From the NCBI GenBank assembly GCA_964507055.1, contig CAZDOJ010000001.1, positions 785,313-849,312 of the forward strand: a stretch of 64,000 nucleotides of DNA. Reading direction: 5' to 3'. Shown here one piece after another: positions 4,717-45,100 of this stretch (the first letter of the stretch is position 1; each line of letters begins with the position of its first letter). This stretch comes from an uncultured Gammaproteobacteria bacterium. GTDB taxonomy: Bacteria; Patescibacteriota; Microgenomatia; Levybacterales; UBA12049. The translations under genes were made by a program, and so were the position numbers. The notes under the pieces are model-generated. The model worked only from the letters and a program-made list of their open reading frames with translations, ran no database searches and was not told the origin of the DNA.

Positions 4717-5292
4717 GTGAAAGCATTTATCACATCACCTAAATTTATTATGATTACAGTTGCATTACTTGCACTTGTTGTCATACCTCTTACGATCATC
4801 CAATCTCAAACTCAACAGAACACACAACAACAAGCAGATCAAGTTTCATGGGGTACAGACCAATCTGCATCCACAACATGTCCTGATGATGGAAACGGAG
4901 TTGTCATTTCCGCAACATTCTCCAATACAGAACCGAAAAAAACATCCACGGACATGGATGTTGTAGTAAAGGACCAACAAACAGGAAAATCAGTTGATAT
5001 GGGTAAAGTACGTGGTGGAGAGACAAAGACTGTAGAAATTCTTACAGAAAAATCGACATTAAAAGCCGGATCAGTTACCTTTACATTAACATGGAGTGAT
5101 GGACATAATGGCGATGACAGTAGAACAGCAAGCTATAAAGCGGTGAGTGACTGTGTCAAGCCAACACCTACTCCTACACCAACAGTGACTCCAACCCCAG
5201 TTCCTTCAGGTGAACCAACACCTACTCCTACTGTTTGCCCGACATTAGGACCTGTCAAGAATGTAACGATCGAGTGTCCTAATTGTCCATAA
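4717..5292 (+). CDS. Secreted or membrane-anchored protein with a Pro/Thr linker and a Cys-rich C-terminus; paralog of the N-terminal domain of the next gene
   Basis: Signal-anchor, then a ~120-aa domain (WGTDQSA...TWSDG...DSRTA(S/T)YK) shared with the 5299-6726 protein, then a PTPTPTP linker. Confidence 0.6.
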   Translation: MKAFITSPKFIMITVALLALVVIPLTIIQSQTQQNTQQQADQVSWGTDQSASTTCPDDGNGVVISATFSNTEPKKTSTDMDVVVKDQQTGKSVDMGKVRGGETKTVEILTEKSTLKAGSVTFTLTWSDGHNGDDSRTASYKAVSDCVKPTPTPTPTVTPTPVPSGEPTPTPTVCPTLGPVKNVTIECPNCP

Positions 5293-5298
5293 TAATGC

Positions 5299-6726
5299 GT
5301 GAATACACTAGAGACTAAACCATCACAAAAAGTACCATTTCTCATCCTTCTCGGAGTTGTGCTGCTCGGTATCCCGCTAACAGTGTTCGCACTGCAGCAA
5401 ACGCAAATTTTGCGTCAATTTGCATGGGGTACAGAGCAATCTGCGGAGGCTATTTGTTCTACCGAAAACGGTGGAGCAGTTGTAAAAGTTAGCTTCACAA
5501 ATACAGAAAATTCTAGAGGGATGGATGTCATTGCTACAGATATCCAATCAGGAAAAACTGTTGACCTGGGTACAGTTGCAGGAAAAGAAACAAAAACTGG
5601 TGAAATCGTTACTGAATCAGAATCTCTTGAAGATGGCGGAGTTAAATTTGATTTAACATGGTCTGATGGCTCCTCAGGCAAAGATAGCCGAACTGCTACT
5701 TATAAGGGTGTTTCAGAATGTGCACCTCCCCCTCCCTTCTGTCCGGCAAACCCAGATGCTAATCGAGGTACATGTAAATGGGATACTCTTGAGGGTGCTG
5801 AAGGATATGAAGTTGTCGTAACTGACAAAGAGACAGGTGAGCCGGTCAAAGAAGAGACTGTTTCTAAAGATTCAACCGAGAGTACCTTTGTAATGACACC
5901 AGGTAAAGCATATATCTGTAAAGTGACACCAGTAAACGCATGCGGAAAAGGTGAAGGGACAGACAGTCCTGAGAAGATTTGTACGATACCAACACCAACG
6001 CCGACAGTTTCACCAACACCTCCAGCTTGTCCTGTACCTCCGTTGAAAAATGGTGTCTGTAAATGGGATGCTCTTGAAGGTGCGACAGAGTATAAGATTA
6101 CAGTCCGAGATTCAGATAAAGACGAAATTATAAAAACTGGTACAGTGAAAGCACCAGATACATCATTCCAATATCCAGCAAATCCAACGACAAAATATCA
6201 GTGCACGGTTATTGCTGTAAATCAATGTAGCGAAGCACCACCTGTAGAAAGTCCACCAATATCTTGTGTACAACCAACGCCTACACCTACATTGCCGGGG
6301 CCAACGCCGACTCCAACAACGCCTGTGCCATCACCTACGCCGACAACGCCAGCACCGACACCAACACCAACCGTGCCGCCGCCAACACCTACTATACCGG
6401 CTCCAACGCCAACACCGGTAGTGATCGTTCGTGTACCAACATATATCACACAACCACCTGTTCAACAGCCGCCGGTTCAACAACCACCTGTTGTCCAGCA
6501 ACCGCCTGTCGTAGTACAACAGCCACCAGTTGTCGTGCAACAACCTGGGCAGCAAATTGTCCAGCAACCAGGCCAAACAGTGGTGATTCAGCCAACACTT
6601 GTACCTGGACAACCATCACCTGTACCTACAATGAAGCCAACAGGCAGCTTGTCTAATTCAGTTATGCTTGTTAGTGCAAGTGTCGTACTTCTAATCGCTG
6701 GAACGCTTGTATTCTTCATTCTCTAA
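5299..6726 (+). CDS. Cell-surface protein: shared N-terminal domain, two FN3-like Cys-bracketed modules, long PT linker, QQPPV repeats and a C-terminal TM anchor
   Basis: Tandem paralogy with the 4717-5292 protein. Two ~80-aa repeats 'C(K)WD.LEGA.EY...V......' resemble fibronectin type III. It ends in a C-terminal hydrophobic helix. Confidence 0.65.
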   Translation: MNTLETKPSQKVPFLILLGVVLLGIPLTVFALQQTQILRQFAWGTEQSAEAICSTENGGAVVKVSFTNTENSRGMDVIATDIQSGKTVDLGTVAGKETKTGEIVTESESLEDGGVKFDLTWSDGSSGKDSRTATYKGVSECAPPPPFCPANPDANRGTCKWDTLEGAEGYEVVVTDKETGEPVKEETVSKDSTESTFVMTPGKAYICKVTPVNACGKGEGTDSPEKICTIPTPTPTVSPTPPACPVPPLKNGVCKWDALEGATEYKITVRDSDKDEIIKTGTVKAPDTSFQYPANPTTKYQCTVIAVNQCSEAPPVESPPISCVQPTPTPTLPGPTPTPTTPVPSPTPTTPAPTPTPTVPPPTPTIPAPTPTPVVIVRVPTYITQPPVQQPPVQQPPVVQQPPVVVQQPPVVVQQPGQQIVQQPGQTVVIQPTLVPGQPSPVPTMKPTGSLSNSVMLVSASVVLLIAGTLVFFIL

Positions 6727-19514: not shown

Positions 19515-19754
19515 TTATCTTAATTGTGTATAATAATTTTTTTTAATATTTAAACCAATATAGCCGTTCAATCCAAATCCTTGTATAGCTAGTCGCTTCA
19601 TCGATTCGACATGCATTGTCCCTGGTCTTACATAATTATATAGATATAAGGACCGATCATTAAACTCTACTTTTATATAGTCACTTCCGATTTCAAACGC
19701 TGCAATGTTTGAGTTCCCGTTTAGGTTTTTGTATGGTTGCATATGATGGCGCAA
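19515..19754 (-). CDS. KTSC-domain-like small protein
   Basis: The 'IKVEFNDRSLYLYNYVRPGT' pattern resembles KTSC (PF13619). Confidence 0.4.
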   Translation of the reverse strand: MRHHMQPYKNLNGNSNIAAFEIGSDYIKVEFNDRSLYLYNYVRPGTMHVESMKRLAIQGFGLNGYIGLNIKKNYYTQLR

Positions 19755-19781
19755 CTATAGTTCACTCTAATTAAATTTTTA

Positions 19782-22034
19782 TTAAATATACTTACTCGTC
19801 AACGAATCTTTCGCATTCTTCAGATCTTTGGGAGTTCCCTTAAACATTACTTCTCCACCTTTGTTCCCACCTTCTGGCCCCATGTCGATGATCCAGTCGG
19901 CATTTCTTATTACGTCCAAATTGTGCTCGATCACAATGACAGTATTGCCACTATCTACCAACCGATTCATGATCTCTAGAAGATGAGTGATGTCACTCAT
20001 GTGTAGACCAGTTGTCGGCTCGTCCATCACATAGATACTTCCCTTTTTGTGGAGTTCACTTGCCAATTTAATTCTCTGGCATTCTCCACCAGACAATGTA
20101 TTAAGAGGTTGGCCTAAAGTAAGATAATTCAGTCCAACATCATTCATTGCTCCCAGTTTCTTCACGACTTCTGGAAGATAGAAAAATTCCAAAGCTTCTT
20201 CAACATTCATTGCCAGAACATCCGCAATTGATTTACCATCCAATTTATACGCCAACACTTCATCTTTGAAGCGTTTCCCATTACAAATATCACACGGTGT
20301 TTTGACACCTTCAAGAAATGCTAGGTCTGTGTAGACAACTCCTTGTCCCTGGCAATTCTCACAAGCTCCTTTGGAATTAAAACTAAACAATCCTGGCTGG
20401 ACTTTATTGGCAGCCGCAAATGCTTTTCGAACATCGTCCATAATGCCGGTGTATGTCGCTGGATTGCTTCTCGAATTTGCACCAACTGCAGATTGATCGA
20501 TGGTAATTGCGTGAGGGTGCTGTTTGAGAAAGACTTGATGAATCAAAGAACTCTTTCCTGAACCAGCAACACCAGTAATCGCTGTCAGAACTCCGGTAGG
20601 GATATCGACGCTAATATTCTTTAAATTATTTACTTTGGCATCTTTGATAGAAAGCGAGCCTTTTGCATTACGAAAAGTTTCTTTAATCGGCATCTGCTTA
20701 TTAAGATGCTTCCCTGTCAATGTATCTGACTTAAGCAAACTTTCAAGTGTCCCTTCGTGAACAATCTTTCCACCATGACTTCCTGCTCTTGGTCCTACAT
20801 CGACAATGTGATCGGCAACATGAATGACATCAGGATCATGTTCAACGACAATTACAGTATTTCCTTTGTCCCGGAGCTTTTTCAAAAGATCATTTAGTCT
20901 ATGCACGTCTCGTGGATGTAAACCAACACTCGGTTCGTCAAAGATATACATAACATCAATGAGACTAGAACTAAGATGCTTTACCATTTTTATACGCTGT
21001 GATTCACCGCCGGATAATGTATCTGTTTCGCGATTCAAACTCAGATATCCCAACCCGATATCGACAACATGCTGCAAGCGTTCCTTCAAGGTCTTTACCA
21101 TCGACTCGGCAGTTGGTTCATCAATCTTCTCGACGACTTTAATCAGATCTCCAACTTCCATTGCTGCGAGTTCTGCGATATTGTTTCCATCAATTTTACT
21201 TGCCAAAACCTTTTGATTAAGTCGTGTACCATGACATTCATTACATGGACCATACTGAAGATATGGAGCAACAGTTTTTTGGGTGCGTTCAGAAAGTGTT
21301 TTTAAATCCCTCTTAATGTATGAGCGATTAAGCTTTTCGACAATTCCGAAATAACTGAGATTCATAGTGTTTTGTTCTCCCATTTGAATTTTGAACTTTC
21401 GATCTTTTCCATAGAGCAATAGATCCATTTCTTCCTTTGTATAATCACGAAGCTTTTTATCATTATCAAAAAATCCTGAAGTTTTATAACTTTCTTTTTC
21501 CCATGCTACAAATAATGGAACTTGTATTGCACCTTCATTGAGAGATTTATCCATATCCCAAAATCCCTCAGTATTAAAACCAATCTTTCTGCCCAACCCA
21601 TTACATGCAAGACACATACCCTGTGGATCATTGAAAGAATATGCATTTGAAAAACCAGCAGAAGGTTTGCCAATTCGTGAGAAAAGTAAACGTAAAATCG
21701 TATAGATATCAGTTATCGTTCCCATCGTTGAATGAGAACCGCCACCCATTTTTTTCTGATCGACCATAATTGCCATACTCAAGTTTTCAATTGCATCGGC
21801 TTCTGGTTGAGAATATTTCGGGAGAAAGTTGCGGACGAACATGCTAAAAGTTTCGTATTCTTGCCTTTTTGCTTCTGTCGCTATAGTGTCAAAAACAATT
21901 GAAGATTTACCAGATCCAGAAACACCAGTAAAAATAGTTATTTTTCTTTTGGGGATTTGCAAACTAATATCTTGAAGGTTATTTTCGCGTGCACCCTTAA
22001 TGACAATATATTCTTGGTTCATAGGAGAATTCAA
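19782..22034 (-). CDS. UvrA-like ABC ATPase (short, class-II UvrA paralog lacking the UvrB-binding region)
   Basis: Two ABC cassettes (Walker A 'GVSGSGKSS' and 'GVAGSGKSS', signatures 'LSGGESQR' and 'LSGGECQR') and Zn-finger CxxC pairs. At 750 aa it is far shorter than the ~940-aa canonical UvrA. Confidence 0.8.
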   Translation of the reverse strand: MNSPMNQEYIVIKGARENNLQDISLQIPKRKITIFTGVSGSGKSSIVFDTIATEAKRQEYETFSMFVRNFLPKYSQPEADAIENLSMAIMVDQKKMGGGSHSTMGTITDIYTILRLLFSRIGKPSAGFSNAYSFNDPQGMCLACNGLGRKIGFNTEGFWDMDKSLNEGAIQVPLFVAWEKESYKTSGFFDNDKKLRDYTKEEMDLLLYGKDRKFKIQMGEQNTMNLSYFGIVEKLNRSYIKRDLKTLSERTQKTVAPYLQYGPCNECHGTRLNQKVLASKIDGNNIAELAAMEVGDLIKVVEKIDEPTAESMVKTLKERLQHVVDIGLGYLSLNRETDTLSGGESQRIKMVKHLSSSLIDVMYIFDEPSVGLHPRDVHRLNDLLKKLRDKGNTVIVVEHDPDVIHVADHIVDVGPRAGSHGGKIVHEGTLESLLKSDTLTGKHLNKQMPIKETFRNAKGSLSIKDAKVNNLKNISVDIPTGVLTAITGVAGSGKSSLIHQVFLKQHPHAITIDQSAVGANSRSNPATYTGIMDDVRKAFAAANKVQPGLFSFNSKGACENCQGQGVVYTDLAFLEGVKTPCDICNGKRFKDEVLAYKLDGKSIADVLAMNVEEALEFFYLPEVVKKLGAMNDVGLNYLTLGQPLNTLSGGECQRIKLASELHKKGSIYVMDEPTTGLHMSDITHLLEIMNRLVDSGNTVIVIEHNLDVIRNADWIIDMGPEGGNKGGEVMFKGTPKDLKNAKDSLTSKYI

Positions 22035-22085: not shown

Positions 22086-23768
22086 ATGGTCCCAAACAAT
22101 CCTGCACAAACAACTCAGCCAACACAACCCGAACAAGTTCCTCAAACACCAACTACAAGTAGATCAAATCATAAGCTCATTATTGGGATCGTTTTAGGAG
22201 CACTCATCCTTACTGTAATTGCTATTGGTTATTTTTTTGTTGCACGTACAAATGCAGCGACTGTCTCTGGATACATTAATTTCACCGCATTAAAACCAGA
22301 CCCACAAGACCAAGGACAAATAGCGTTAAAATACAGGAAGTACGGAACGACGGAAGAGTATAAAAAGATTGATTCACTACCGCAACTACAAGATACTGCA
22401 CCTTGGACATGGACAGAAGCAGAAAATGGACAACCATATGAAGTTATCGCAGAACTTTCTGTTAATGATAAGTTGATAACGACATCTGAGCCACTAATCG
22501 TTACAGCACCTGCAATCAATCAAGAACTCGCTCTCCGTGTAACATGGCATGATTTACCGGTTGAGGTAGTACAAGAGCAAACAACAGCAATCAAGGGACA
22601 TACTATTATTAATGGCTTGATCCCTGCAAGTAGTCGGCTTTTTATCCAGGCCAAAGCTATGGATGGAACTACATTTGAAACAGTAGCGACAATTAACACA
22701 CCTACGAATGATAATCCTTGGGAATGGAAAGATGTAACTCCACTAAAAGATTATTCACTCAAAGGTATCCTCGTCAGTGGGACAACTGTTATCGGGACTT
22801 CGGACATCATGACTGCGGCGGGAGGAGATAACGAAATTGAATTGATGATAAATTCGATGGCACAACCAGATCCAACTCCAACACAAATTATCCAGCCAAC
22901 GGCAAAACCGACTGCGACACCAACGCCAATTATTGTGACAGCTACTCCTGTTATGACTATTACATCCGTACCAACTGCAACTCCTATTCCTACAGAAATA
23001 CCGACACCAACACCAGTTCCGGCAAAGGGCAAAATCTCAGGCAAGATTTTAATCAACGGACCGAAAGATGCAAATACAAGTGTTGTGCTTTTGTCGAGAA
23101 AGCCCGGACAAGGAGATTTCCAAACACTTACAAAAATTGATTATCCAAAACAAGATGGACAAAATTGGGAATGGGATGATGCTACTGTAGGAACTAATTA
23201 TGAAATTATGGCAGAGTTACAGGTGAATAATAATACAACCGCTACTGCAAGATCGCAAGTAGTCGCTGGCCCTGCTAAAAATGTAGACTTCATCTTGAAT
23301 ACAGGAGTTACTGTGCCGACAACAAACGAGACGCCTTCATTGGCAGCATGTACAAATAATCATGACAATCAATGGGATGCCACAATACAATTTCCAAATG
23401 TAAATAATGCAGGAAATTATTGGTTCAAAGTTGGCACAAATCCGAGTTCTGCTGATACATTTAATTCAAAGCAACGGCCACAAACAAATACCGATAAACA
23501 AAATGTGACAATTCGTGTTGATAGTAAAAATCCTTATTTTGCTCAATATGCATTCTCTATTTGTATCAATTGCTCAAGCGATAAGAACTTTTCTAACTTC
23601 TCACATACAGTTCAATTTACATGTGGTGAAGATGGGCCTCCTGCACCGACACAGACTCCATTTCCAACGGCTATACCAACGACAACACCAGTTCCGACAA
23701 AAAAGCCAACATCTACACCTATTCCAATCTTAACAGTGCCTGTTGAGCTGAAACCAAGTCCTCGGTAG
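22086..23768 (+). CDS. Secreted repeat protein with PT linkers and three internal '(P/N/Q)W(T/E)W' modules
   Basis: Signal anchor. Repeated ~110-aa units each contain 'WEW', 'YE(V/I)(I/M)AEL' and 'VN'. Pro/Thr linkers. Confidence 0.55.
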   Translation: MVPNNPAQTTQPTQPEQVPQTPTTSRSNHKLIIGIVLGALILTVIAIGYFFVARTNAATVSGYINFTALKPDPQDQGQIALKYRKYGTTEEYKKIDSLPQLQDTAPWTWTEAENGQPYEVIAELSVNDKLITTSEPLIVTAPAINQELALRVTWHDLPVEVVQEQTTAIKGHTIINGLIPASSRLFIQAKAMDGTTFETVATINTPTNDNPWEWKDVTPLKDYSLKGILVSGTTVIGTSDIMTAAGGDNEIELMINSMAQPDPTPTQIIQPTAKPTATPTPIIVTATPVMTITSVPTATPIPTEIPTPTPVPAKGKISGKILINGPKDANTSVVLLSRKPGQGDFQTLTKIDYPKQDGQNWEWDDATVGTNYEIMAELQVNNNTTATARSQVVAGPAKNVDFILNTGVTVPTTNETPSLAACTNNHDNQWDATIQFPNVNNAGNYWFKVGTNPSSADTFNSKQRPQTNTDKQNVTIRVDSKNPYFAQYAFSICINCSSDKNFSNFSHTVQFTCGEDGPPAPTQTPFPTAIPTTTPVPTKKPTSTPIPILTVPVELKPSPR

Positions 23769-25144: not shown

Positions 25145-26164
25145 TCACTTTTTTCGATTCACCATTTTTTGCAAGAATTCTTGGAGTAACTCTCTCATTT
25201 GAGGATCTTGTGTAAGCGTTGGAATGATTTCCTCTGCAACTTCAATGATATTAGTAGACCATTTTTGAGAATAATTAAGGGCACCTGTTGCTATAAATAT
25301 CGCTCTCACTTTTTCAGATTCCAAATGGCGGATTGAACTACTTCCGTAATACTTATTAAGTATCTTTAATTCATCTTTGGTCGCGTTTCTTGCAGCGTAA
25401 CTTATTAAGAGAGTATTCTTTCCTTCTTTTATATCTGAATTCACAGATTTACCTGTAACTCTCTCATCACCAAAAATACCAATAATATCGTCCTGGATTT
25501 GAAATGCTATTCCAAGCTGTGTACCAAAATTTTCTATACAGGATAGTTGCTTTAAATCAGCACCACCAAGTATTGCACCCACACAAAGAGGAGCTACAAA
25601 ACTATATGTCGCTGTTTTTAGTTCATACATTTTCAAGATATGTTCTTCACTCTTTACCGATACTTTGGATAGTTCAATATCAAGCAACTGTCCGACTATC
25701 GTCTGCTGAATTTTGTTGCAATAAAAATCGATTGCTTTCTGTTTTTGATCAACATTGAAATTGGTATTATTTATGATTTGAGCCGACCAAACAAGACCAA
25801 GATCTCCAAAACAGAGAGCCAGAGATTCACCTTTTTTATCGTTACCAAGAGCAACATGCAAACTTGGTCTTCCCCTTCGTGACCTACCTTGATCAATAAT
25901 GTCGTCATGAATAAGAAGAGCCGAATGAACAACTTCGAAAGCACTTGCAATCTCAAGGATCTGATCATCAACCTTTTTTCCAGCTAGCATATAACCTAAA
26001 CACACTAACATCCCTCTGATCATTTTTCCACCAAATAAACTCTCTGAATAATGGTTATATTGTTTTTCTAAATAATTAATTCGGGGATTTTTTTGTGCAA
26101 CTTGTAGCTGAAGCTTTTGCGTTATTTCTTGACTAATTTGTTGATTAAATTCTTTATAATTCAT
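25145..26164 (-). CDS. Polyprenyl diphosphate synthase (trans-isoprenyl diphosphate synthase; FPP/GGPP synthase-like)
   Basis: First Asp-rich motif 'LIHDDIID', second 'FQIQDDIIG', plus the 'GGKMIRG' and 'RRGRPS' substrate-binding blocks. Confidence 0.85.
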   Translation of the reverse strand: MNYKEFNQQISQEITQKLQLQVAQKNPRINYLEKQYNHYSESLFGGKMIRGMLVCLGYMLAGKKVDDQILEIASAFEVVHSALLIHDDIIDQGRSRRGRPSLHVALGNDKKGESLALCFGDLGLVWSAQIINNTNFNVDQKQKAIDFYCNKIQQTIVGQLLDIELSKVSVKSEEHILKMYELKTATYSFVAPLCVGAILGGADLKQLSCIENFGTQLGIAFQIQDDIIGIFGDERVTGKSVNSDIKEGKNTLLISYAARNATKDELKILNKYYGSSSIRHLESEKVRAIFIATGALNYSQKWSTNIIEVAEEIIPTLTQDPQMRELLQEFLQKMVNRKK

Positions 26165-26167
26165 AAT

Positions 26168-28066
26168 TTACTGATTAGTTATATAAGTATTGAGAAATGA
26201 AAGGGCTCGTTGTTTCTCTTTTCTTGCCGTTATAACAGCATGTTCTTGCTCGTCTATAAATTGCTCTAATATCTCTTTATTTGTAACTATGTCTATGCTG
26301 GAAAGAGCAAGACGTGCTTGATATACATGAAGTTCTATTAAGTCACACACGTCTTCAATTGTTTCATTCCAAAATGTCTGTTGCAGATTTGTAGTCGTCC
26401 TCTGTAGAAGTAATGCTGCAACACTATTTATATGTCCTTTTTTTAGATCACTCTCCCAATCATGTGCATCATCATTTATTTGTCGAGCAATTAAGTAATG
26501 TGAGAAAAAATTAAAGAGAGATGCAACATCATTTGCATACTGATTTTTATTACTTAAAAGTATCAAGGCGACACATCCCAATGCATGTCCCATTGAGCGA
26601 TCGGCGAGAACTTGATATGAGCCATAATTAGGTAAAGAAAGCGAGGATAAGTTCGTCGCAGAATTAAAACGACAATGAGTCACTTCCCATGTGTTTACTT
26701 CTTCCAATCGATCCATAACCGACTGAAAAACTTTTTGAAAGCCAATCTCTTCCTTCAAAATGGAATTAAAAATAATTGTTAATTCTCGAAGACAAATATT
26801 TGCAAGTGGTAAAGATGGGATGTCCGGCTCATTATCAAGAAAGTCATCATAAATTGTATATGCAATCCATCCATAAAGACTTGCTGCCCCAAGTTGTACG
26901 AGAATATTCTTCGAAATTTCTTTCTTATCACTTAAAGATTGATAAAAATAATATGGAAGGAGTGTAATTTGCATCATACGATCTTTCTTCAGTGCTTTTT
27001 CAAGATAACTTAAGCCCCGCTTTTGTAGATTTGGTCCAAGTAACAATATTCTTTTTTTAACAATAGATACAACCTGGTTATGTATGGCATTCTTTTTTTT
27101 ATTTTGATGTACTACTATATTTTCTTTTATTTTTTTGTTGTAAAGAGCATATGCTTCCAAGCAGAATGCTGTTGTTAAAGCTTCCGAACCGGCGACATAT
27201 ACTTTATCTTTTTGAGGGTTAACGCCAGTATAAAATGCTGCTGCGGGCCAACTCCCATCAATCCGCTGTAGCATAACAAGCTCCGCTATCAAACGAGAGA
27301 CCGTACTTGATGATGCACCAAGATTGAGAAGAGAAATAGTTTTTAGAGCAATATCTAAAGATGTTACGGCAGACATTTGTAAAACAATTTTTTGAAGTTT
27401 TTTCCTCGATGAACCTTTTAATACTCGGGAAAGGAAATAAAATGTAGCAAAATGATTCGGATAATATGGTGTTGTAAATATTTTATTATTAATAATTTCA
27501 GTAAATAATTTTGATAACTTTGGCAATTTTATATCTTGCATTTGAAGGAAAAAAGCAATATTAGCATTCACACATACATCCACATCTTTCCATATACCTG
27601 GAGCAGTATTGCTTACTAACCATGTTTTGTACGGACCTCCCTCTTGAGTTTCTACCAATGTCAGAATTTTCACTATATGTGCCAATGCCTCACCAGTAAT
27701 TAGCTTCTGATCAAAAAGATATAAAGCTGAGAGTGTACAGAAAGTATCATCCAAATCGTCAGGATACGCCATTGTTTTAGCTTCTGGGGATTGCCTATCC
27801 CAATAATTCCAGGTCCATGAAGAGCTTTTTTGAGAAAGTAAGAATTTAACAGAACTTTTTATAATGCCATCGGTATTTTTTGAATGCGTTAGATTTGTTA
27901 AGGACTGCATAATGAGAGCCGTTGAGAAGATGGTTTTATATTGTATCCTGCTTTTAAAATTAGTATCCGGAGATGAAAAGCTCGTAAAGCATCCATTTTT
28001 GTCTTGAACTTTTTGTAAATATGTAATTCCTCGTTCTGACGATTTTTGTAAGGAAATCTCAAGCAT
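26168..28066 (-). CDS. Two-domain terpene-cyclase-like protein: N-terminal alpha/alpha-toroid (prenyltransferase/squalene-oxidase repeat) domain with a class-II-like 'DLDDTF' motif, C-terminal domain with a class-I-like 'DDFLD' motif
   Basis: 'PDDLDDTFCTLSALYL' parallels the SHC/CPS 'DxDDTA' catalytic motif. The QW-like repeats are 'GITYLQKVQDKNGCF' and 'LQRIDGSWPAAAFY'. The C-terminal 'IYDDFLDN' and 'NDDAHDWESD' are Asp-rich. Confidence 0.5.
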   Translation of the reverse strand: MLEISLQKSSERGITYLQKVQDKNGCFTSFSSPDTNFKSRIQYKTIFSTALIMQSLTNLTHSKNTDGIIKSSVKFLLSQKSSSWTWNYWDRQSPEAKTMAYPDDLDDTFCTLSALYLFDQKLITGEALAHIVKILTLVETQEGGPYKTWLVSNTAPGIWKDVDVCVNANIAFFLQMQDIKLPKLSKLFTEIINNKIFTTPYYPNHFATFYFLSRVLKGSSRKKLQKIVLQMSAVTSLDIALKTISLLNLGASSSTVSRLIAELVMLQRIDGSWPAAAFYTGVNPQKDKVYVAGSEALTTAFCLEAYALYNKKIKENIVVHQNKKKNAIHNQVVSIVKKRILLLGPNLQKRGLSYLEKALKKDRMMQITLLPYYFYQSLSDKKEISKNILVQLGAASLYGWIAYTIYDDFLDNEPDIPSLPLANICLRELTIIFNSILKEEIGFQKVFQSVMDRLEEVNTWEVTHCRFNSATNLSSLSLPNYGSYQVLADRSMGHALGCVALILLSNKNQYANDVASLFNFFSHYLIARQINDDAHDWESDLKKGHINSVAALLLQRTTTNLQQTFWNETIEDVCDLIELHVYQARLALSSIDIVTNKEILEQFIDEQEHAVITARKEKQRALSFLNTYITNQ

Positions 28067-28085
28067 TAGAGAAAGGGTAGTTTGA

Positions 28086-28107
28086 AAAGATTAAAAAAAT
28101 ATTAAAT
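28086..28107 (-). promoter_or_regulatory. 22-bp element AAAGATTAAAAAAATATTAAAT (copy 1), about 20 nt upstream of the terpene-cyclase-like gene start
   Basis: Exact repeat of 30381-30402, in the same position relative to a minus-strand start codon. Candidate shared promoter or operator. Confidence 0.45.
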
Positions 28108-29511
28108 CTTTTTGAGTAGAGGAAAGGTTATTGTAAAAGTACTTCCGACATTTAATTTTGAATCTACTAAGACTTGTCCCTTAAAATCCTTTGTTACAAT
28201 ATCATAACTAATGGAAAGACCAACTCCAGTCCCCTTCCGATAGCCTTTTGTCGAAAAGAATGGTTCAAATATTTTCTCTAGATCTTTTGCTGATATGCCT
28301 TTTCCAAAATCTTGAATAATTATTTTTACTTCTTCTACTTCTTTTGAAAGAAAGATGTCGACGGTCCTTCTTTTTCTGCGTAATCCATCATAGGCATCAA
28401 TTGCGTTTGAGAGGAAGTTACACATAAATTGGTGAAACTTTAAGGGATTGCCATAGATACGGATAGTCTTAGTGAAATGAAAGCCTACAAGTACCTTATT
28501 CTTTTTTGATTTATAATTAAGTATCTCAATTGCTTCATAGATTTCATTATTAACTGAGAAATATTCAAGTAAGTCCTGATTATTTACTTGCTTTCTTGTC
28601 GATAAAATAAAACTTTCAAGTCGATTTATACCTACAGTTGCTCGAGCAACGATAGCATGCATATCATCAATATTGTTCTTACTACTTTCCAATTGTTTTA
28701 AATTCGCAGATACTAAGTTGACGGAATTAGAAAGGTCATGAAGGAATTCCGAAGCAGACTTACCAAATTCTGCAAACTTATACAATTGAGCAACTCGTAC
28801 TGCTTGCTCTTGCCGCAACGCTTTTGTTTTTTCTTCTACTTTTTGGGCTAAAGAATCCCTCTCTCTTTGTAATGCTTTTTCAGAAAGTCTAGCTCTCTTT
28901 AAAGCAAGTTCACCTTCTCTATTAAATAACCATGATACTATCGCTATTACCAAAAATGTTACTGTAGCGACAATAGTATCGCCCATTGTAAGTTCTGTAC
29001 GCTGCCAAAGTAGTTGCGGTGCTTCGAGGTATACTAATTGTACTATTGTTATCACAGATAAAGATATCCCGATGACTACTGCTACAATAAGAGAGAGCCT
29101 ACTATTGATTAGTATCCCTGAAAAAACAATTATAAGAGCATATGTTAAAAGACCTTGCGGAAAATCAGCACCCCAACGGTAGGCACCCCATGTAGTAAGA
29201 AGATATAAAGAAGTAATAATAATGTAGGAAGCAATATTTGATTTCCCAATTCTTGATAAATAGTAATTAAATAGCAGGAAACAGAGTATGAGTATTAATT
29301 CTCTCGACGCACCTTTAACAGCTAAGTGAAACAATTCGCTGATAAGTGCATCAGCGAGAGCTATACATGTTAAAAGAATAAAGCTCAATAATAGAATATT
29401 GAGAATACGTTCACGCCTAGACTTGTCCTTATTCTTTGAACGAGAATCCACTAAAAGCCTTGCGATTGATACTGTATTTTGAAATACATTTAGTAAACTT
29501 CGTTTTAGCAT
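28102..29511 (-). CDS. Membrane sensor histidine kinase, peptide-sensor (HPK10/AgrC-ComD-like) type
   Basis: About 6 N-terminal TM helices. The phosphorylated-His box 'EFLHDLSNSVNLV' resembles AgrC 'EFRHDYKNHLLVL' rather than HisKA 'HELRTPL'. N-box 'FLSNAIDA', G1 'QDFGKGI', G2 'GTGVGL'. Confidence 0.8.
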   Translation of the reverse strand: MLKRSLLNVFQNTVSIARLLVDSRSKNKDKSRRERILNILLLSFILLTCIALADALISELFHLAVKGASRELILILCFLLFNYYLSRIGKSNIASYIIITSLYLLTTWGAYRWGADFPQGLLTYALIIVFSGILINSRLSLIVAVVIGISLSVITIVQLVYLEAPQLLWQRTELTMGDTIVATVTFLVIAIVSWLFNREGELALKRARLSEKALQRERDSLAQKVEEKTKALRQEQAVRVAQLYKFAEFGKSASEFLHDLSNSVNLVSANLKQLESSKNNIDDMHAIVARATVGINRLESFILSTRKQVNNQDLLEYFSVNNEIYEAIEILNYKSKKNKVLVGFHFTKTIRIYGNPLKFHQFMCNFLSNAIDAYDGLRRKRRTVDIFLSKEVEEVKIIIQDFGKGISAKDLEKIFEPFFSTKGYRKGTGVGLSISYDIVTKDFKGQVLVDSKLNVGSTFTITFPLLKKI

Positions 29512-29568
29512 CAGAACAATTATAAACTTTTTCTCTGTTTACCTGCTATTACCTATTTTGTTAGTAAA

Positions 29569-29676
29569 CTAACTCCATGGGTGAAAAGCTGATTCAGCAA
29601 TAATCTTTTTTTCAGATTTTGCTTTATTATTACGAATAGACTTATTCGTTAATAATTCTTTCATTAAGGATTTCAT
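29569..29676 (-). CDS. Small ORF (35 aa, MKSLMKELLTNKSIRNNKAKSEKKIIAESAFHPWS) between the regulator and kinase genes; candidate pheromone or RiPP precursor
   Basis: AAGGAGGTGA lies 4 nt before the ATG and directly after the regulator's stop codon. The peptide is basic with a single Trp two residues from the C-terminus. Not in the supplied track because it is under 60 aa. Confidence 0.45.
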   Translation of the reverse strand: MKSLMKELLTNKSIRNNKAKSEKKIIAESAFHPWS

Positions 29677-29690
29677 GACATCACCTCCTT

Positions 29691-30359
29691 TCATTCTTCT
29701 ATCTTATACCCATATCCATGTACGGTTTTGATAAGTTTTTTATTATAATTTCTATCAACTTGGTCTCTGAGATATTTAATATGGACATCCACTACATTAT
29801 TATCCGATTCGTAGCTACTTTCCCAAATATGGTCAAATATCATAGAACGGGTTAAAACTCTTCCAGCATTTCTCATCATATATTCTAAAAGGTCAAAATC
29901 TTTTCTTTTAAGTTGGAGCACTTGGTTATTTCTTTTTGCTACCCTTTGTGTGAGATCTATTGTTAGACTATCTACTGCAATGACATTTGAATGAAGTTTT
30001 GGAGAAGAACGTCGTAAAACAGCCTCAATTCTTGCATGAATCTCTTTTTCATCAACTGGTTTTACAATATAGTCATCTGCCCCACTATTGAGTGCTTGAA
30101 CTTTATTAGCAACTTCGCCAGTACCTGTGAGCATAATTATTGGAGTTGTTATACCTTCAGCTCGGAGATCCTTGCAAACTTGTATCCCATCAATATCAGG
30201 TAATTGATAATCAATGATGATCAAACTGTAATCATAGATATATGCCTTATACTCTCCTTCTTGACCGGTGTTTGCAATTTCAAAGATATAATACTTCTGA
30301 AGACCAGAGGCTAAAGTCTCAGCACTTACTTTATCATCCTCTATTAAAAGTATTTTCAT
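29691..30359 (-). CDS. OmpR/PhoB-family response regulator (receiver plus winged-helix output)
   Basis: 'LLIEDD', the 'IIDYQLPDIDG' phospho-Asp region, and the C-terminal 'VVDVHIKYLRDQV...TVHGYGYKI' winged helix. Confidence 0.9.
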   Translation of the reverse strand: MKILLIEDDKVSAETLASGLQKYYIFEIANTGQEGEYKAYIYDYSLIIIDYQLPDIDGIQVCKDLRAEGITTPIIMLTGTGEVANKVQALNSGADDYIVKPVDEKEIHARIEAVLRRSSPKLHSNVIAVDSLTIDLTQRVAKRNNQVLQLKRKDFDLLEYMMRNAGRVLTRSMIFDHIWESSYESDNNVVDVHIKYLRDQVDRNYNKKLIKTVHGYGYKIEE

Positions 30360-30380
30360 ATCTCATTCTATATTACCAAG

Positions 30381-30402
30381 AAAGATTAAAAAAATATTAA
30401 AT
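30381..30402 (-). promoter_or_regulatory. 22-bp element AAAGATTAAAAAAATATTAAAT (copy 2), about 22 nt upstream of the response-regulator start
   Basis: Exact repeat of 28086-28107. Confidence 0.45.
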
Positions 30403-30422
30403 GATTAATGTGTTAATCATTT
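30399..30422. promoter_or_regulatory. Perfect 10-4-10 palindrome AAATGATTAA-TGTG-TTAATCATTT in the divergent promoter region
   Basis: Read directly from the sequence. It overlaps the 3' end of 22-mer copy 2. Confidence 0.4.
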
Positions 30423-30459
30423 TTTAACAAAAGCTACCTTTAATTATTGATAGAGATCT

Positions 30460-30873
30460 ATGTCTAAAGGTAGAGCAATTATTATTTTCTTCACGATAGT
30501 AACGATAGTTGCAGTTACGTTTTTCGGATTTAATAAATACAGGCAGCCTCAACAATCAAAGACATTTCATGCAGTTTTTCTCTCAAATGATCAAGTTTAT
30601 TTTGGTAAGGTTGCGGAGGATACCGAGACTAATTTAACGCTTACTGATGTCTACTATCTTAAAGCAAGTACAGACACGACAGCAATAAAAAATCTTACGA
30701 AAGAAAATTCAGCAACAGCTAAATTGGCGTTGGTAAAGCTGGGGGAAGAACTCCATGCTCCAAAAGACAAGATCGCTATTAATAAAGAACATATCTTATT
30801 TACTGAAGAAATGGAATCAAATGGAACAATTATGGATGCAATTAGAAGGTATGAACAAAAAATTTCTCAATAA
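30460..30873 (+). CDS. Hypothetical membrane-anchored protein
   Basis: N-terminal TM. No recognisable motif. Confidence 0.4.
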   Translation: MSKGRAIIIFFTIVTIVAVTFFGFNKYRQPQQSKTFHAVFLSNDQVYFGKVAEDTETNLTLTDVYYLKASTDTTAIKNLTKENSATAKLALVKLGEELHAPKDKIAINKEHILFTEEMESNGTIMDAIRRYEQKISQ

Positions 30874-33244
30874 CATAGCGATTGGATGCACTTTATTTTT
30901 GGGTTCACTAATACAGCCTATGACTATTTTTGCTTCTCCAAAAATTGATGTCGCTCCCCTCAAACTACTAGATCAAGAAACAACAAAGTACATAGGGGGA
31001 GAGGAAAAACCAGTGGCTGTTTGGGAGATGCCAATTGACCAAGATCTTTTAAGAGAATTAGGTCTTATGCAAAATGGTGAAAGCTCTGCACCAATAAATA
31101 CCAACCATATACAATATCTCACAACAGTATTACAGAACGAATCCCTTATTTTACAAGGACGATCACCACTGTACTTTAGAAACTCTTCAAACATCAATCA
31201 GATTTCTATAGAAATTAACACTCCTACACAGAATCGATATATTACATTGCCAGATAGATCTGGAGAAATTACAGTACTTGGACAGACAATCTCAGGAGAA
31301 GAAATTGATGATCGCGGAATTGATTTGGTAACAAAAACTACAGGAGATTATGTGCAATCCGTAGTCTCGGGCAGTGGCATAGCAATATCTGGAGGTACGG
31401 GAAAAGGGATAACAGCAGATCTTTCTCTTGGCGATCTTACCAAAGATTGGATACAATCTGCACCATTTGATATTGTAATTAACAATCCCGATAGCGGTCT
31501 CAAATTAATCGATGCAAGTGGAAATCACTTTGCAAGAATTGCTGTAGATACACTTGCCAATGATGTAACACTGAAATTAAGCGGAGCAGGAGGAACACTC
31601 CTTACTGATGATAACTTCTCATCACTTGTTGACTTACCTGATGGATTAGATAACCTCTCTGGACTTACAGATCTTGTTGCTGCACGTTCAAACTTAGGAC
31701 TCGGAGATATTGCTACTCAAAATACAAACGACTTCCTTACTGTTTCAAATAATCTCTCGGAGTTAACGGATATAACACAAGCACGTAGCAATTTAGCACT
31801 TGGGGACATCGTGACACAAAACAGCAGTTCTTTTTTTAGTACAGCAAATAATTTATCAGAATTAACTGACACATCAATCGCTCAAACAAATTTAGGTTTA
31901 GGGACTATGGCAACAGAATCAGTAGAAAATTTTTTAAATGCGAACAATAATCTTTCGGAGATTACAGACTCTGCACTTGCCCGAAGTAACTTAGCCCTTG
32001 GAAGTATCGCTATATATGATAATGATGATTTCTTTAATGTATCAAATAATCTTGCTGAAATTACTGATATGAGTATGGCTCGGGGTAATTTAGGACTCGA
32101 AGAAATGGCGACACAACATATTAGCAGTTTCCTTCAAACAGCAAACAGCTTGTCAGAAGTTGATCCATCAACTGCAAGAACAAACCTTGGATTAGGCGAT
32201 ATTGCAACACAATCAATAGGATCATTTTTACAAGTCAGTAATAATTTAGCTGAGATCGACCCAATGGCTGCAAGAATAAACTTAGGACTTGGATCAAGTG
32301 CTATACAAAATGCTAATGCCTTTTTACAAACTACAAATAACTTATCTGAAATTGCAGATCCTTCGATTGCAAGAATGTCACTCGGTTTAGGAACAATTGC
32401 GACACAACCACTTTCAAATTTTGTGCAGACAACAAACAACCTTTCAGACATAAGCAATACAACAATTGGAAGGACTAATTTAGGACTTGGTTCGATTGCC
32501 ACGCAAAGTGCTTCAAGTATCGCACTTACGGGAGGAACACTTAACGGTGTAGCAATCGGAGCAACTACACCAGCAAATGCGGCATTTAGCACTCTCACCT
32601 CGTCAGGCAATACGGTACTCGGATCATCTGGGAGTACAACAATTGGTAATGGATCCAGTACCGTCCAAATTTCATCGAACGGACTTAATATTTCATCAAG
32701 TGGAGCAATTTCAGGAGTAACAGGATACACACAATCATCGGGCAATTTTGCATTGTCGGGTAATGGAAGTCTTACTACGGGTACAGGCAATGTATCAATA
32801 AATGGAGATACGACAGTAGCATCGGGAAAAACAGTAAATCTCACATCGAATGACAGTCTAAGAGTTGGTGGAAGCATCGTCCCACAAACAGTGACAATTG
32901 TTGTACCAATGCTTGCAACCCTCTCAGTAGGATTGAACGATCAGGTAGTTTTTGTTTCTGATAATGTCTATGCATTAGCAGGTGCACGATGTGTCTATTC
33001 TGCTGCTGCGTCGATTGGAGCAAATCTTCAAGTGACTGTTGATGCAGGGACCGCTGCACCAGGGACAGGAACAGACCAACTCACAGCAAGTATTAATCTC
33101 GGAAGCACATTAAATACTGTTTATACAGGAACTGTGATTGGATCACCTACTCCTATCAATATAAACGATAAAGTAAGTATAGACTTTTCAGGAACACTCA
33201 TAGGAATTCTTGGAAGTTGCACAATCACACTCAAAAGAACATAA
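30851..33244 (+). CDS. Large secreted repeat protein with nine tandem ~33-aa 'NNLSE(I/L)TD-x3-AR(S/T)NLGLG-x2-ATQ' repeats (tail-fibre-like) and a Gly/Ser/Thr-rich C-terminal domain
   Basis: Start moved to the internal Met that begins a signal peptide (MNKKFLNNIAIGCTLFLGSLIQPMTIFASP). The repeats span about 31620-32530. The 'AR.NLGLG' periodicity is reminiscent of phage tail-fibre repeats. Confidence 0.55.
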   Translation: MNKKFLNNIAIGCTLFLGSLIQPMTIFASPKIDVAPLKLLDQETTKYIGGEEKPVAVWEMPIDQDLLRELGLMQNGESSAPINTNHIQYLTTVLQNESLILQGRSPLYFRNSSNINQISIEINTPTQNRYITLPDRSGEITVLGQTISGEEIDDRGIDLVTKTTGDYVQSVVSGSGIAISGGTGKGITADLSLGDLTKDWIQSAPFDIVINNPDSGLKLIDASGNHFARIAVDTLANDVTLKLSGAGGTLLTDDNFSSLVDLPDGLDNLSGLTDLVAARSNLGLGDIATQNTNDFLTVSNNLSELTDITQARSNLALGDIVTQNSSSFFSTANNLSELTDTSIAQTNLGLGTMATESVENFLNANNNLSEITDSALARSNLALGSIAIYDNDDFFNVSNNLAEITDMSMARGNLGLEEMATQHISSFLQTANSLSEVDPSTARTNLGLGDIATQSIGSFLQVSNNLAEIDPMAARINLGLGSSAIQNANAFLQTTNNLSEIADPSIARMSLGLGTIATQPLSNFVQTTNNLSDISNTTIGRTNLGLGSIATQSASSIALTGGTLNGVAIGATTPANAAFSTLTSSGNTVLGSSGSTTIGNGSSTVQISSNGLNISSSGAISGVTGYTQSSGNFALSGNGSLTTGTGNVSINGDTTVASGKTVNLTSNDSLRVGGSIVPQTVTIVVPMLATLSVGLNDQVVFVSDNVYALAGARCVYSAAASIGANLQVTVDAGTAAPGTGTDQLTASINLGSTLNTVYTGTVIGSPTPININDKVSIDFSGTLIGILGSCTITLKRT

Positions 33245-43816: not shown

Positions 43817-45100
43817 CTATTTATTATCAAGTGACTCAAGCGAAGGTGAAACATACTGTACATTCTCTTCAATAAAATCCATCAAAATACCTGTATCTGT
43901 AAACCGATCCTGACTCTGCATAACGACAATAATGTAGGTATGTCCATTTTTAACAGTTGATGTTACGAGCACTTCACCAGCACCTTCAGTCGTTCCTGTT
44001 TTGATACCAGTAACACCTTCAGATCCCAGTAATCTATTTAAATTTGCTAAAGGATATGTCCGCATATATGAGAGATCGCTAATTGTTTTATAACGAGTTG
44101 AGGTAATCTCTGTAAAAACAGGATGCGTAATTGCATGGGAAGCAAGTCGAGAAAGATCGACAACTGTTGTGTAATCTCCATCATCATCCAATCCTGAGGG
44201 ATCTGCGTAATGTGTTTTAGTCAAATGAAGCGATGCAGCTTTATCATTCATTTTTTTGATGAAAGCATCAGAACCACCTGGGTAATTATCAGCAATCGCC
44301 TGTGCTGCATCATTTGCGGAAGGCAACATCATTGCATAGAGAAGATCTTTAAAACGAAACTTATCACCTGGAACTAATCCCAAACCTGAACCCTCAACTC
44401 CAGAGGATTTAATAGTTAAAATAGCATCCAAGGCATAATAGTCTAAGCCTGTCAAAGCAGTCATGATTTTTGTTGTTGATGCCATTGAAAAACGCAATTG
44501 CGGATTCTTTGAGTAAAGTATTACTTGTGAATCAGCATCAACGATGATTGCTGCATTTGCGGATATTACAGGCTGTTCAACCTTTTGGACAAAAGGGTAT
44601 GGATTTACTTTTGTTGTAACACCTGAAGCATGAAATTCTTCATCGGCGACTGTAGTAAACATTTGGCTATTAATGACATTTAGCGTAACCAGAATCATAA
44701 GCAAAATAAGTGGGAACAAAATCAACTGGAGATCGGACTCATTCTTCTGCAGGAACTTCCGCATATTTTTGTGTCGACGAACAAAGCGTAACTTAGAAAG
44801 TGGGATGGGTTTGAACGAAAATTTGAGCGATGAAATTTTTGTTAAAAGCGGTGTAAACAGTTTCTTTATTTCGCCCCCATTGAAAGTTATATTTTCATTT
44901 ATGGATGAAGTTGTGTGTTTTTCAGCTAATTCTTTCAGTGCGGATTCAACAATAACATCTTTCGGCTTTGAAGAAGCCTTAGAAGATACGTCTTTTTGCT
45001 TATTTGGTTTTGCTTTTACGAACTTTTTCGTTTTTTTCTTCGATAGCTGAAAATCTTTCATCGACACGCTCCATATCTCGTGGGAACATAGCTGCCTCAC
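43817..45100 (-). CDS. D-alanyl-D-alanine carboxypeptidase (peptidase S11), second copy. The true start is probably internal (Met near 44764) with a TM anchor; the upstream in-frame Lys-rich region overlaps the AsxRS gene
   Basis: SxxK 'STTK', SxN 'SAND', KTG 'KTGTT'. The signal anchor 'LILFPLILLMILV' follows the internal Met. Confidence 0.7.
   Translation of the reverse strand: MRQLCSHEIWSVSMKDFQLSKKKTKKFVKAKPNKQKDVSSKASSKPKDVIVESALKELAEKHTTSSINENITFNGGEIKKLFTPLLTKISSLKFSFKPIPLSKLRFVRRHKNMRKFLQKNESDLQLILFPLILLMILVTLNVINSQMFTTVADEEFHASGVTTKVNPYPFVQKVEQPVISANAAIIVDADSQVILYSKNPQLRFSMASTTKIMTALTGLDYYALDAILTIKSSGVEGSGLGLVPGDKFRFKDLLYAMMLPSANDAAQAIADNYPGGSDAFIKKMNDKAASLHLTKTHYADPSGLDDDGDYTTVVDLSRLASHAITHPVFTEITSTRYKTISDLSYMRTYPLANLNRLLGSEGVTGIKTGTTEGAGEVLVTSTVKNGHTYIIVVMQSQDRFTDTGILMDFIEENVQYVSPSLESLDNK

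Follow-up and report, generated by a model that had tools for sequence, protein, structure and literature searches.

A shared direct-repeat box at the promoters of a response regulator and a terpene-cyclase-like gene in a Patescibacterium: a probable operator of the adjacent OmpR/PhoB-family regulator

The 64,000-nucleotide stretch of contig CAZDOJ010000001.1 analysed here (the window), from a Patescibacterium, contains a 22-bp element in two identical copies that bracket exactly the genes of a response regulator, a small open reading frame (ORF) and a histidine kinase. These genes are followed by those of a terpene-cyclase-like protein and a polyprenyl synthase, all on the minus strand (hereafter the module). 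The OmpR/PhoB-family response regulator (29691..30359, 222 aa) matches the Pfam families PF00072 and PF00486 and is the proposed binder of the element. A conserved 41-aa ORF (29569..29694) overlaps the regulator stop codon and occupies the interval before the kinase gene (28102..29511, 469 aa), which encodes a HATPase_c domain and is preceded by a TATAAT of its own, 7 nt from the ATG. The N-terminal half of the kinase contains about six hydrophobic segments joined by short loops, as judged by eye from the translation. Only 35 nt separate the kinase gene from that of the terpene-cyclase-like two-domain protein (26168..28066, 632 aa; hereafter the cyclase), whose gene is proposed to be the output of the second promoter. 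The polyprenyl synthase gene (25145..26164; PF00348, E 1.6e-54) starts 3 nt past the cyclase stop codon and is presumably co-transcribed with the cyclase gene. These domain matches, together with the profile and fold of the cyclase, bear out the gene labels of the first-pass annotation.

No Pfam match was found for the cyclase. With a profile of its family, a match to drimenol synthase (9mhs, E 5e-16) was obtained in the class II cyclase domain. Foldseek comparison of its structure model, which has a predicted local distance difference test (pLDDT) score of 90, showed that the N-terminal half resembles class II terpene cyclases, and the matches of the model also include prenyl synthases and proteins of the isoprenoid-synthase α fold. 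Family members share a class II-like N-terminal domain, in which YPDDLDDT (DDLDD) is invariant, and a C-terminal domain of the isoprenoid-synthase α fold, in which DDxxD and NDDxHDW are invariant. The family is large in Patescibacteria, with at least 990 homologues, most of which have no Pfam assignment; homologues bear names such as Levybacteria, Microgenomates and Patescibacteria, from which the source organism is assigned to the Patescibacteria.

The element, AAAGATTAAAAAAATATTAAAT in the plus-strand reading, was found exactly twice by a direct search of the window, at 28086-28107 and 30381-30402 as first annotated. The copies are 2,295 bp apart and identical at 22/22 positions, and both are present with no mismatches in the assemblies of five sequencing runs. 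Their flanks are dissimilar, and the resemblance ends at the edges of the 22-mer. No third copy was found in the window at up to three mismatches (shuffle expectation 0.03). The 22-mer exceeds every other exact direct repeat of the window in length. Order-3 Markov simulations of the window (n = 200) gave longest repeats of 15-20 nt and in no case 22 nt, which speaks against a chance origin of the repeat and agrees with the earlier statement that a chance 22-mer is very unlikely. The runner-up exact repeat, of 19 nt at 44991 and 63412, lies inside coding sequence and is within the chance range.

On the minus strand, which is the coding strand of the module, the 22-mer reads ATTTAATATTTTTTTAATCTTT and consists of two tandem 11-nt units, ATTTAATATTT and TTTTAATCTTT, each containing a TTTAAT half-site. 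The half-sites of copy 1 (28086..28107, at the cyclase promoter) are located at 28106..28101 and 28095..28090, and those of copy 2 (30381..30402, at the regulator promoter) at 30401..30396 and 30390..30385. Both copies have the arrangement TTTAAT-N5-TTTAAT with directly oriented half-sites one helical turn (10-11 bp) apart, which is the architecture of OmpR/PhoB-family operators. Copy 1 sits in the 35-nt gap between the kinase and cyclase genes and overlaps the end of the former, the kinase stop codon TAA (28104..28102) falling within half-site 1. The distance from copy 1 to the cyclase ATG (28066) is 19 nt and that from copy 2 to the regulator ATG (30359) is 21 nt, all on the minus strand, close to the 20 nt noted at first. 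With two copies in 64 kb, each at a gene start, the element does not behave in the window as a dispersed AT-rich repeat lying off promoters, the alternative that the first-pass annotation had raised. A repeat like a repetitive extragenic palindrome (REP) or a miniature inverted-repeat transposable element (MITE) would have many copies per genome that are not tied to gene starts, often with inverted-repeat ends; the present count covers 64 kb of the 1.3-Mb source genome. Neither a terminator-like site nor an Rfam match was found at either copy. The two copies share no RNA fold; an AU-rich hairpin is present at copy 1 only and is built with flanking bases. An RNA element or intrinsic terminator is out, given the missing terminator, Rfam match and common fold.

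The exact 22-mer was also searched for in 185,579 species genomes, a collection that does not include the source genome. The scan yielded 17 exact matches, one per genome, in unrelated AT-rich genomes. No regulator, kinase or cyclase gene was found near these 17 matches, which are therefore chance matches. That the matches are single and in unrelated genomes speaks against a repeat dispersed across the genomes of this collection.

The surroundings of the two copies suggest promoters in which the element lies upstream of a -10 hexamer. The candidate -10 element of the cyclase promoter, TACCCT (28074..28079, minus strand), lies 10 nt past the box and 7 nt before the ATG, so that a leaderless cyclase mRNA is implied. 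This hexamer is a weak -10 element with neither a TGn extension nor a -35-like hexamer, and activator dependence is therefore suggested. The candidate -10 element of the regulator promoter, TAATAT (30370..30375, minus strand), is preceded by TGG and lies 9 nt past the box and 10 nt before the ATG; TATAGA and TAGAAT, 3-5 nt beyond it, are alternatives. A sigma-70 consensus scan found no canonical -35/-10 pair at either copy, which is compatible with an activator-dependent promoter and is not evidence by itself. A Shine-Dalgarno sequence is missing in 35/40 long ORFs of the window by a crude test, and in many ORFs the ATG is preceded at 6-9 nt by TATACT or TATAAT, frequently together with TGn (for example 6742+, 42649+, 42610-, 15168-, 38468- and 29511-). 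Because of these two features, leaderless mRNAs appear to be the rule in this Patescibacterium. The box would take the -35 position of both promoters, since in this largely leaderless genome a -10-like hexamer and then a start codon follow it at short distance. The box is thereby placed where a regulator replacing the -35 element would contact RNA polymerase, about 10 bp upstream of the -10 element (10 nt in the cyclase promoter and 9 nt in the regulator promoter). The first-pass annotation had offered two readings of the element, a shared -10 or extended promoter and a binding site of the OmpR-type regulator. The former is rejected because the box is at -35 and the -10-like hexamers, 9-11 nt downstream of the element, are not part of the 22-mer and have a different sequence in each promoter. 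The latter is well supported by comparison with related loci.

The related loci (designated by L numbers) comprise three found through the closest cyclase homologues (46-51% identity) and 80 from a family-alignment metagenome scan; they share ancestry and are not independent samples. The regulator gene is upstream of the kinase gene in nearly all of them, and the kinase gene is directly upstream of the cyclase gene in all but one of the loci with enough upstream sequence. The 41-aa ORF was called in L001, L023 and L024, and tblastn homologues are at the same position in L025, L032, L050, L056 and L059; it probably encodes a genuine small protein that belongs to the module. The exact TTTAAT-N5-TTTAAT motif is present on the sense strand in 18 of the 46 distinct 100-nt regions upstream of the regulator, compared with 0.044 in shuffles; examples are TTTAATGTTTTTTTAATCTTT in L024 and TTTAATATTTTTTTAATCTTT in L075. 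The other spacings from N0 to N13 occur in 0-1 regions each except for N10, which occurs in five, where a third TTTAAT occupies the -10 position. Among the 50 exact matches on both strands of 823 kb, 22 are upstream of the regulator and 11 are at kinase-cyclase junctions, and all of these 33 are in the sense orientation. The relatives also share the promoter geometry. An xAxxxT, resembling a -10 hexamer, occurs 10 or 11 nt past the box in 23/30 distinct boxes and in 0-2 at other offsets, and the regulator promoters of the relatives have TATACT 11 nt past the box and 11-12 nt before the ATG. A nearby regulator with a winged-helix (Trans_reg_C) domain and a box at both its own and the target promoter are thus found in the window and conserved in relatives.

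A position weight matrix (PWM) was built from 20 other genomes, leaving out the window. In the 64 kb, copy 1 and copy 2 rank first and second (26.6 and 25.6 bits), and the next sites score 14.1 bits. The sequence is AT-rich and of low complexity, and chance does produce single copies of the exact 22-mer in 17 unrelated AT-rich genomes, so a generic AT-rich promoter, an UP-element, a translation enhancer or a chance low-complexity match has to be weighed. However, the 64 kb, with about 60 genes, contain no more than two high-scoring sites, and other promoters of the window use TGnTAnnnT without the box. The strict N5 spacing and the sense orientation are unexpected of an AT tract, the simulations never reach the length of the repeat, and the copies have neither a common RNA structure nor an Rfam match. 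Such a generic explanation is therefore very improbable.

The kinase-cyclase junction is a recurrent second site of the box. The junctions form two classes. In most loci the genes overlap or are separated by a gap of at most 12 nt, and there is no box; junctions with a gap of 35-66 nt almost always contain one. Box-carrying junctions are found in the window and in L023, L027/L029, L028, L034/L036, L037, L039, L045, L056, L086 and L092, a patchy set of lineages, with the L037 junction boxed in a gap of 275 nt. As in the window, the kinase stop codon often falls within the first half-site at boxed junctions. The cyclase-side geometry of box, 10 nt, TAnnnT, 7 nt and ATG also occurs in L023, L034, L039 and L092, where the hexamer is TAATCT in L023 and L092 and TAATAT in L034 and L039, compared with TACCCT in the window. 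Where the junction is boxless, with the genes overlapping or at most 12 nt apart, the cyclase gene would presumably be read from the regulator promoter.

The exact identity of the two window copies, which flank precisely the regulator gene, the small ORF and the kinase gene, might suggest a functionless scar left by a recent duplication or insertion around a 2.3-kb regulator-kinase cassette. However, the regulator-kinase-cyclase synteny is ancient and near-universal, which rules out the insertion of such a cassette, and both positions are boxed in several distant lineages with different flanks. Moreover, boxes of distant genomes reach 20-21/22 identity to the window 22-mer. A scar is hardly conceivable on this evidence and already largely refuted. 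The box identity of pairs from the same genome averages 18.7/22 versus 16.8 ± 2.3 for cross-genome pairs, and at the 14 non-core positions, 8.7 are alike in own-genome pairs versus 7.5 in cross-genome pairs. Besides the half-sites, the T-rich spacer and the CTTT 3' flank are conserved. The two copies are best read as near-consensus versions of a strongly constrained operator rather than products of a recent duplication, because boxes of different genomes are nearly as similar and own-genome pairs are barely closer. Concerted evolution or gene conversion of the two boxes has no clear support, given the similar own-pair and cross-genome identities.

The occurrence of the box follows the recognition helix of the regulator. 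The regulators of box-carrying loci have only 40-67% identity among relatives and share the recognition helix TN(T/V)VDVHIKYLRD. The regulators of boxless loci have the helix TLKSHxRNLRAKID or NTIETHI..LRRKI and other conserved upstream motifs; in L041, L043, L061, L072, L077, L081 and L084, where regulator identity is at most 38%, there is no TTTAAT box and a shared upstream motif, tttgctatgggcaaa ... TGnTAAAATATAG, is present. The best solved-structure matches of the window regulator are DrrD and RegX3, followed by PmrA/BasR as the third- and fourth-best, and the alignment with Klebsiella PmrA/BasR has an E value of 1e-35. The base-specific contacts of PmrA determined by nuclear magnetic resonance (NMR) are made by K153, T187, N188, H193 and H195 (PMC3973317). 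The corresponding residues are K, N, N, H and K in the window protein (three of five the same) and K, T, N, H and K in the family consensus (four of five). Since the helix tracks the presence of the box and the PmrA contact residues are mostly kept, the comparison supports the adjacent regulator as the reader of xTTAAT half-sites but falls short of proof.

It could be argued that another factor reads the box, either a different transcription factor or an alternative sigma factor that uses it as a -35 element. The binder is here a prediction from sequence, AT-rich boxes could suit many proteins, and an unrelated 75-aa ORF 8 kb away is preceded by a third exact match. However, the box accompanies the regulator gene down to 40-67% regulator identity and is lost along with its recognition helix. 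Tandem 11-bp repeats are the signature of the OmpR/PhoB family, and the half-site equals that of PmrA, whose base-contact residues the window regulator mostly shares. A different reader of the box is therefore improbable.

Taken together, the 22-mer is probably an operator of the adjacent OmpR/PhoB-family regulator that takes the place of the -35 element in the regulator's own promoter and in an internal cyclase promoter, with activation as the most likely effect. The 11-bp tandem repeats, the conservation at both positions, the N5 spacing, the covariation with the recognition helix and the -35 position all point to the regulator-site reading of the first-pass annotation. In the proposed mechanism, the kinase would phosphorylate the regulator, and the two winged-helix domains of the regulator dimer would bind the half-sites head-to-tail. 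The bound regulator would recruit RNA polymerase from the -35 position, as PhoB does at PHO boxes; such recruitment is proposed because the cyclase promoter has a weak -10 element and neither a -35 element nor TGn. Binding to copy 2 would result in autoregulation, and binding to copy 1 would drive a leaderless cyclase/polyprenyl-synthase transcript from the internal promoter in the 35-nt gap. Kinase signalling could thus lift the expression of the output genes above read-through from the regulator promoter. The kinase seems to have about six transmembrane segments, which would suggest an intramembrane signal, a speculation. Positive feedback, which had been proposed for the element, is plausible given the -35 placement.

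In the main rival reading, the same regulator binds the same box but would obstruct the -35 position and so repress one promoter or both, leading to negative autoregulation and to signal-dependent repression or derepression of the cyclase. The box indeed overlaps the -35 position, the reasonable TGG-TAATAT of the regulator promoter might fire unaided, and OmpR-family members repress at some promoters. However, the cyclase promoter, with its poor TACCCT, no TGn and no -35 element, would hardly fire unaided, so that repression would be pointless there. In addition, the distance of 10-11 nt between the box and the -10 element matches the class II activator geometry of PHO boxes. Repression is thus unlikely as the principal mode of action.

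Several points weigh against an activating operator. A site overlapping the -35 position can repress as well as activate, and the best -10 element of the regulator promoter is 9 nt from the box, not 10-11 nt. Several orthologous loci have a degenerate first half-site (TTTAGA) or are boxless within 100 nt (for example L099). Owing to the kinship of the loci, there are fewer independent events than the conservation counts would suggest. Finally, both the transcription starts, deduced from promoter geometry, and the binding of the regulator to the box are predictions.

Further candidate sites were found in the window. A weaker box-like site, GTTAATCATTTTTTAAC (30412..30428, plus strand; 14.1 bits), stands back-to-back with copy 2. 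Downstream of it come 10 nt, TTTAAT, a further 15 nt and then the ATG of a divergent gene for a 137-aa membrane protein (30460-30873, plus strand), a possible third target. L086 and L087 also have a homologue of this gene divergent from the regulator gene, and their box-like sites score 9.4 and 14.8 bits. The third exact TTTAAT-N5-TTTAAT match, TTTAATAAAAATTTAAT (19770..19786, minus strand; 14.1 bits), overlaps the end of an ABC-ATPase gene; a TATAGT comes 10 nt after it, and another 11 nt lead to the ATG of the 75-aa ORF (19515-19742, minus strand), for which no homologue was found in other loci. This match is a candidate regulon member or a chance match. In some relatives, exact boxes are also found just downstream of the cyclase gene before genes for secreted-like proteins (L055 at 8316, L063 at 7821 and L071 at 3312), and in others an exact box precedes an Hsp20-like gene, about 2.8 kb upstream of the regulator (L067 at 951 and L068 at 955). 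These extra sites hint at a wider, variable regulon.

Repeats of other kinds are present in coding regions of the window. An 829-aa ORF (30755-33244, plus strand) contains 96-nt (32-aa) tandem repeats at 31679-32322 with units of the form NNLSE(I/L)TD...AR.NLGLG..ATQ; its large product has no Pfam match, and the gene adjoins that of an M10-type metallopeptidase. Pro/Thr-rich repeats (CCAACACCTACTCCTAC and variants) resembling PT linkers occur in two coding regions, at 5161-6344 and 22977-23731.

To our knowledge, almost nothing is known of transcriptional regulation in Patescibacteria (Candidate Phyla Radiation), which are mostly uncultivated. Our search of the literature on Patescibacteria terpene cyclases, two-component systems and leaderless translation found no description of the module or the box. 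As a mechanism, the box would represent a conventional type of bacterial switch in a little-studied group, namely an OmpR-type system that regulates itself through a direct-repeat box in the -35 position. The result supplies a cis-element with a consensus and a promoter geometry, a candidate binder and a conserved regulator/kinase/terpene-cyclase-like module. The box thereby offers a handle on what these reduced organisms sense and on a widespread, uncharacterised family of two-domain terpene synthases. It is directly testable, in a group of bacteria that is poorly understood. A broader reading, possible but doubtful, is an undescribed regulon throughout the Patescibacteria, in which a kinase with about six transmembrane segments and no obvious extracellular domain would sense the state of the membrane and, through a PmrA-like regulator, switch on leaderless transcription of the two-domain terpene synthase and polyprenyl synthase genes. 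If true, the module would form a loop that keeps cyclic-terpenoid membrane lipids in homeostasis, in bacteria generally regarded as relying on hosts for lipids.

The closest known counterpart in sequence is the PmrA box of Salmonella and Klebsiella, which consists of CTTAAG/xTTAAT half-sites 5 bp apart that are bound head-to-tail by an OmpR/PhoB-family regulator (PMC3973317). The two boxes share the xTTAAT half-site, the 5-bp spacer (an 11-bp period), the direct orientation and an OmpR-family regulator, and TTTAAT-N5-TTTAAT in the window agrees with the half-site definition of the PmrA box. However, the window spacer is a conserved T-run and the CTTT 3' flank is also conserved, and binding to the window box is a prediction. 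The window regulator is not an orthologue of PmrA, since DrrD and RegX3 score higher, and its host is a Patescibacterium. The PmrA regulon targets genes for the modification of lipopolysaccharide (LPS)/lipid A, whereas the window targets are a terpene-cyclase-like protein and a polyprenyl synthase. The window element may thus work like a PmrA box yet lie outside the PmrA regulon.

The PHO box of Escherichia coli consists of two 11-nt direct-repeat units to which PhoB binds head-to-tail (PMC4415409). The window box likewise has two 11-nt tandem units, each with a conserved core and a less conserved part, positioned about 10 nt upstream of the -10 element in place of the -35 element, and, like the PHO system, the module would combine an autoregulated two-component operon with separate output promoters. 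They differ in the core, which is CTGTCAT in the PHO box and TTTAAT in the window. The window output also differs from that of PhoB in being a single adjacent gene pair with an internal promoter that overlaps the kinase stop codon and predicted leaderless transcripts. In the DesK-DesR system, a membrane-embedded kinase controls the neighbouring gene of a lipid-modifying enzyme. The regulators are of different types, DesR being NarL/LuxR-type and the window regulator OmpR-type, and the topology of the window kinase was judged by eye. However, the two systems are alike in having an apparently transmembrane-only sensor and a regulator whose main target is the adjacent gene of a membrane-lipid-related enzyme.

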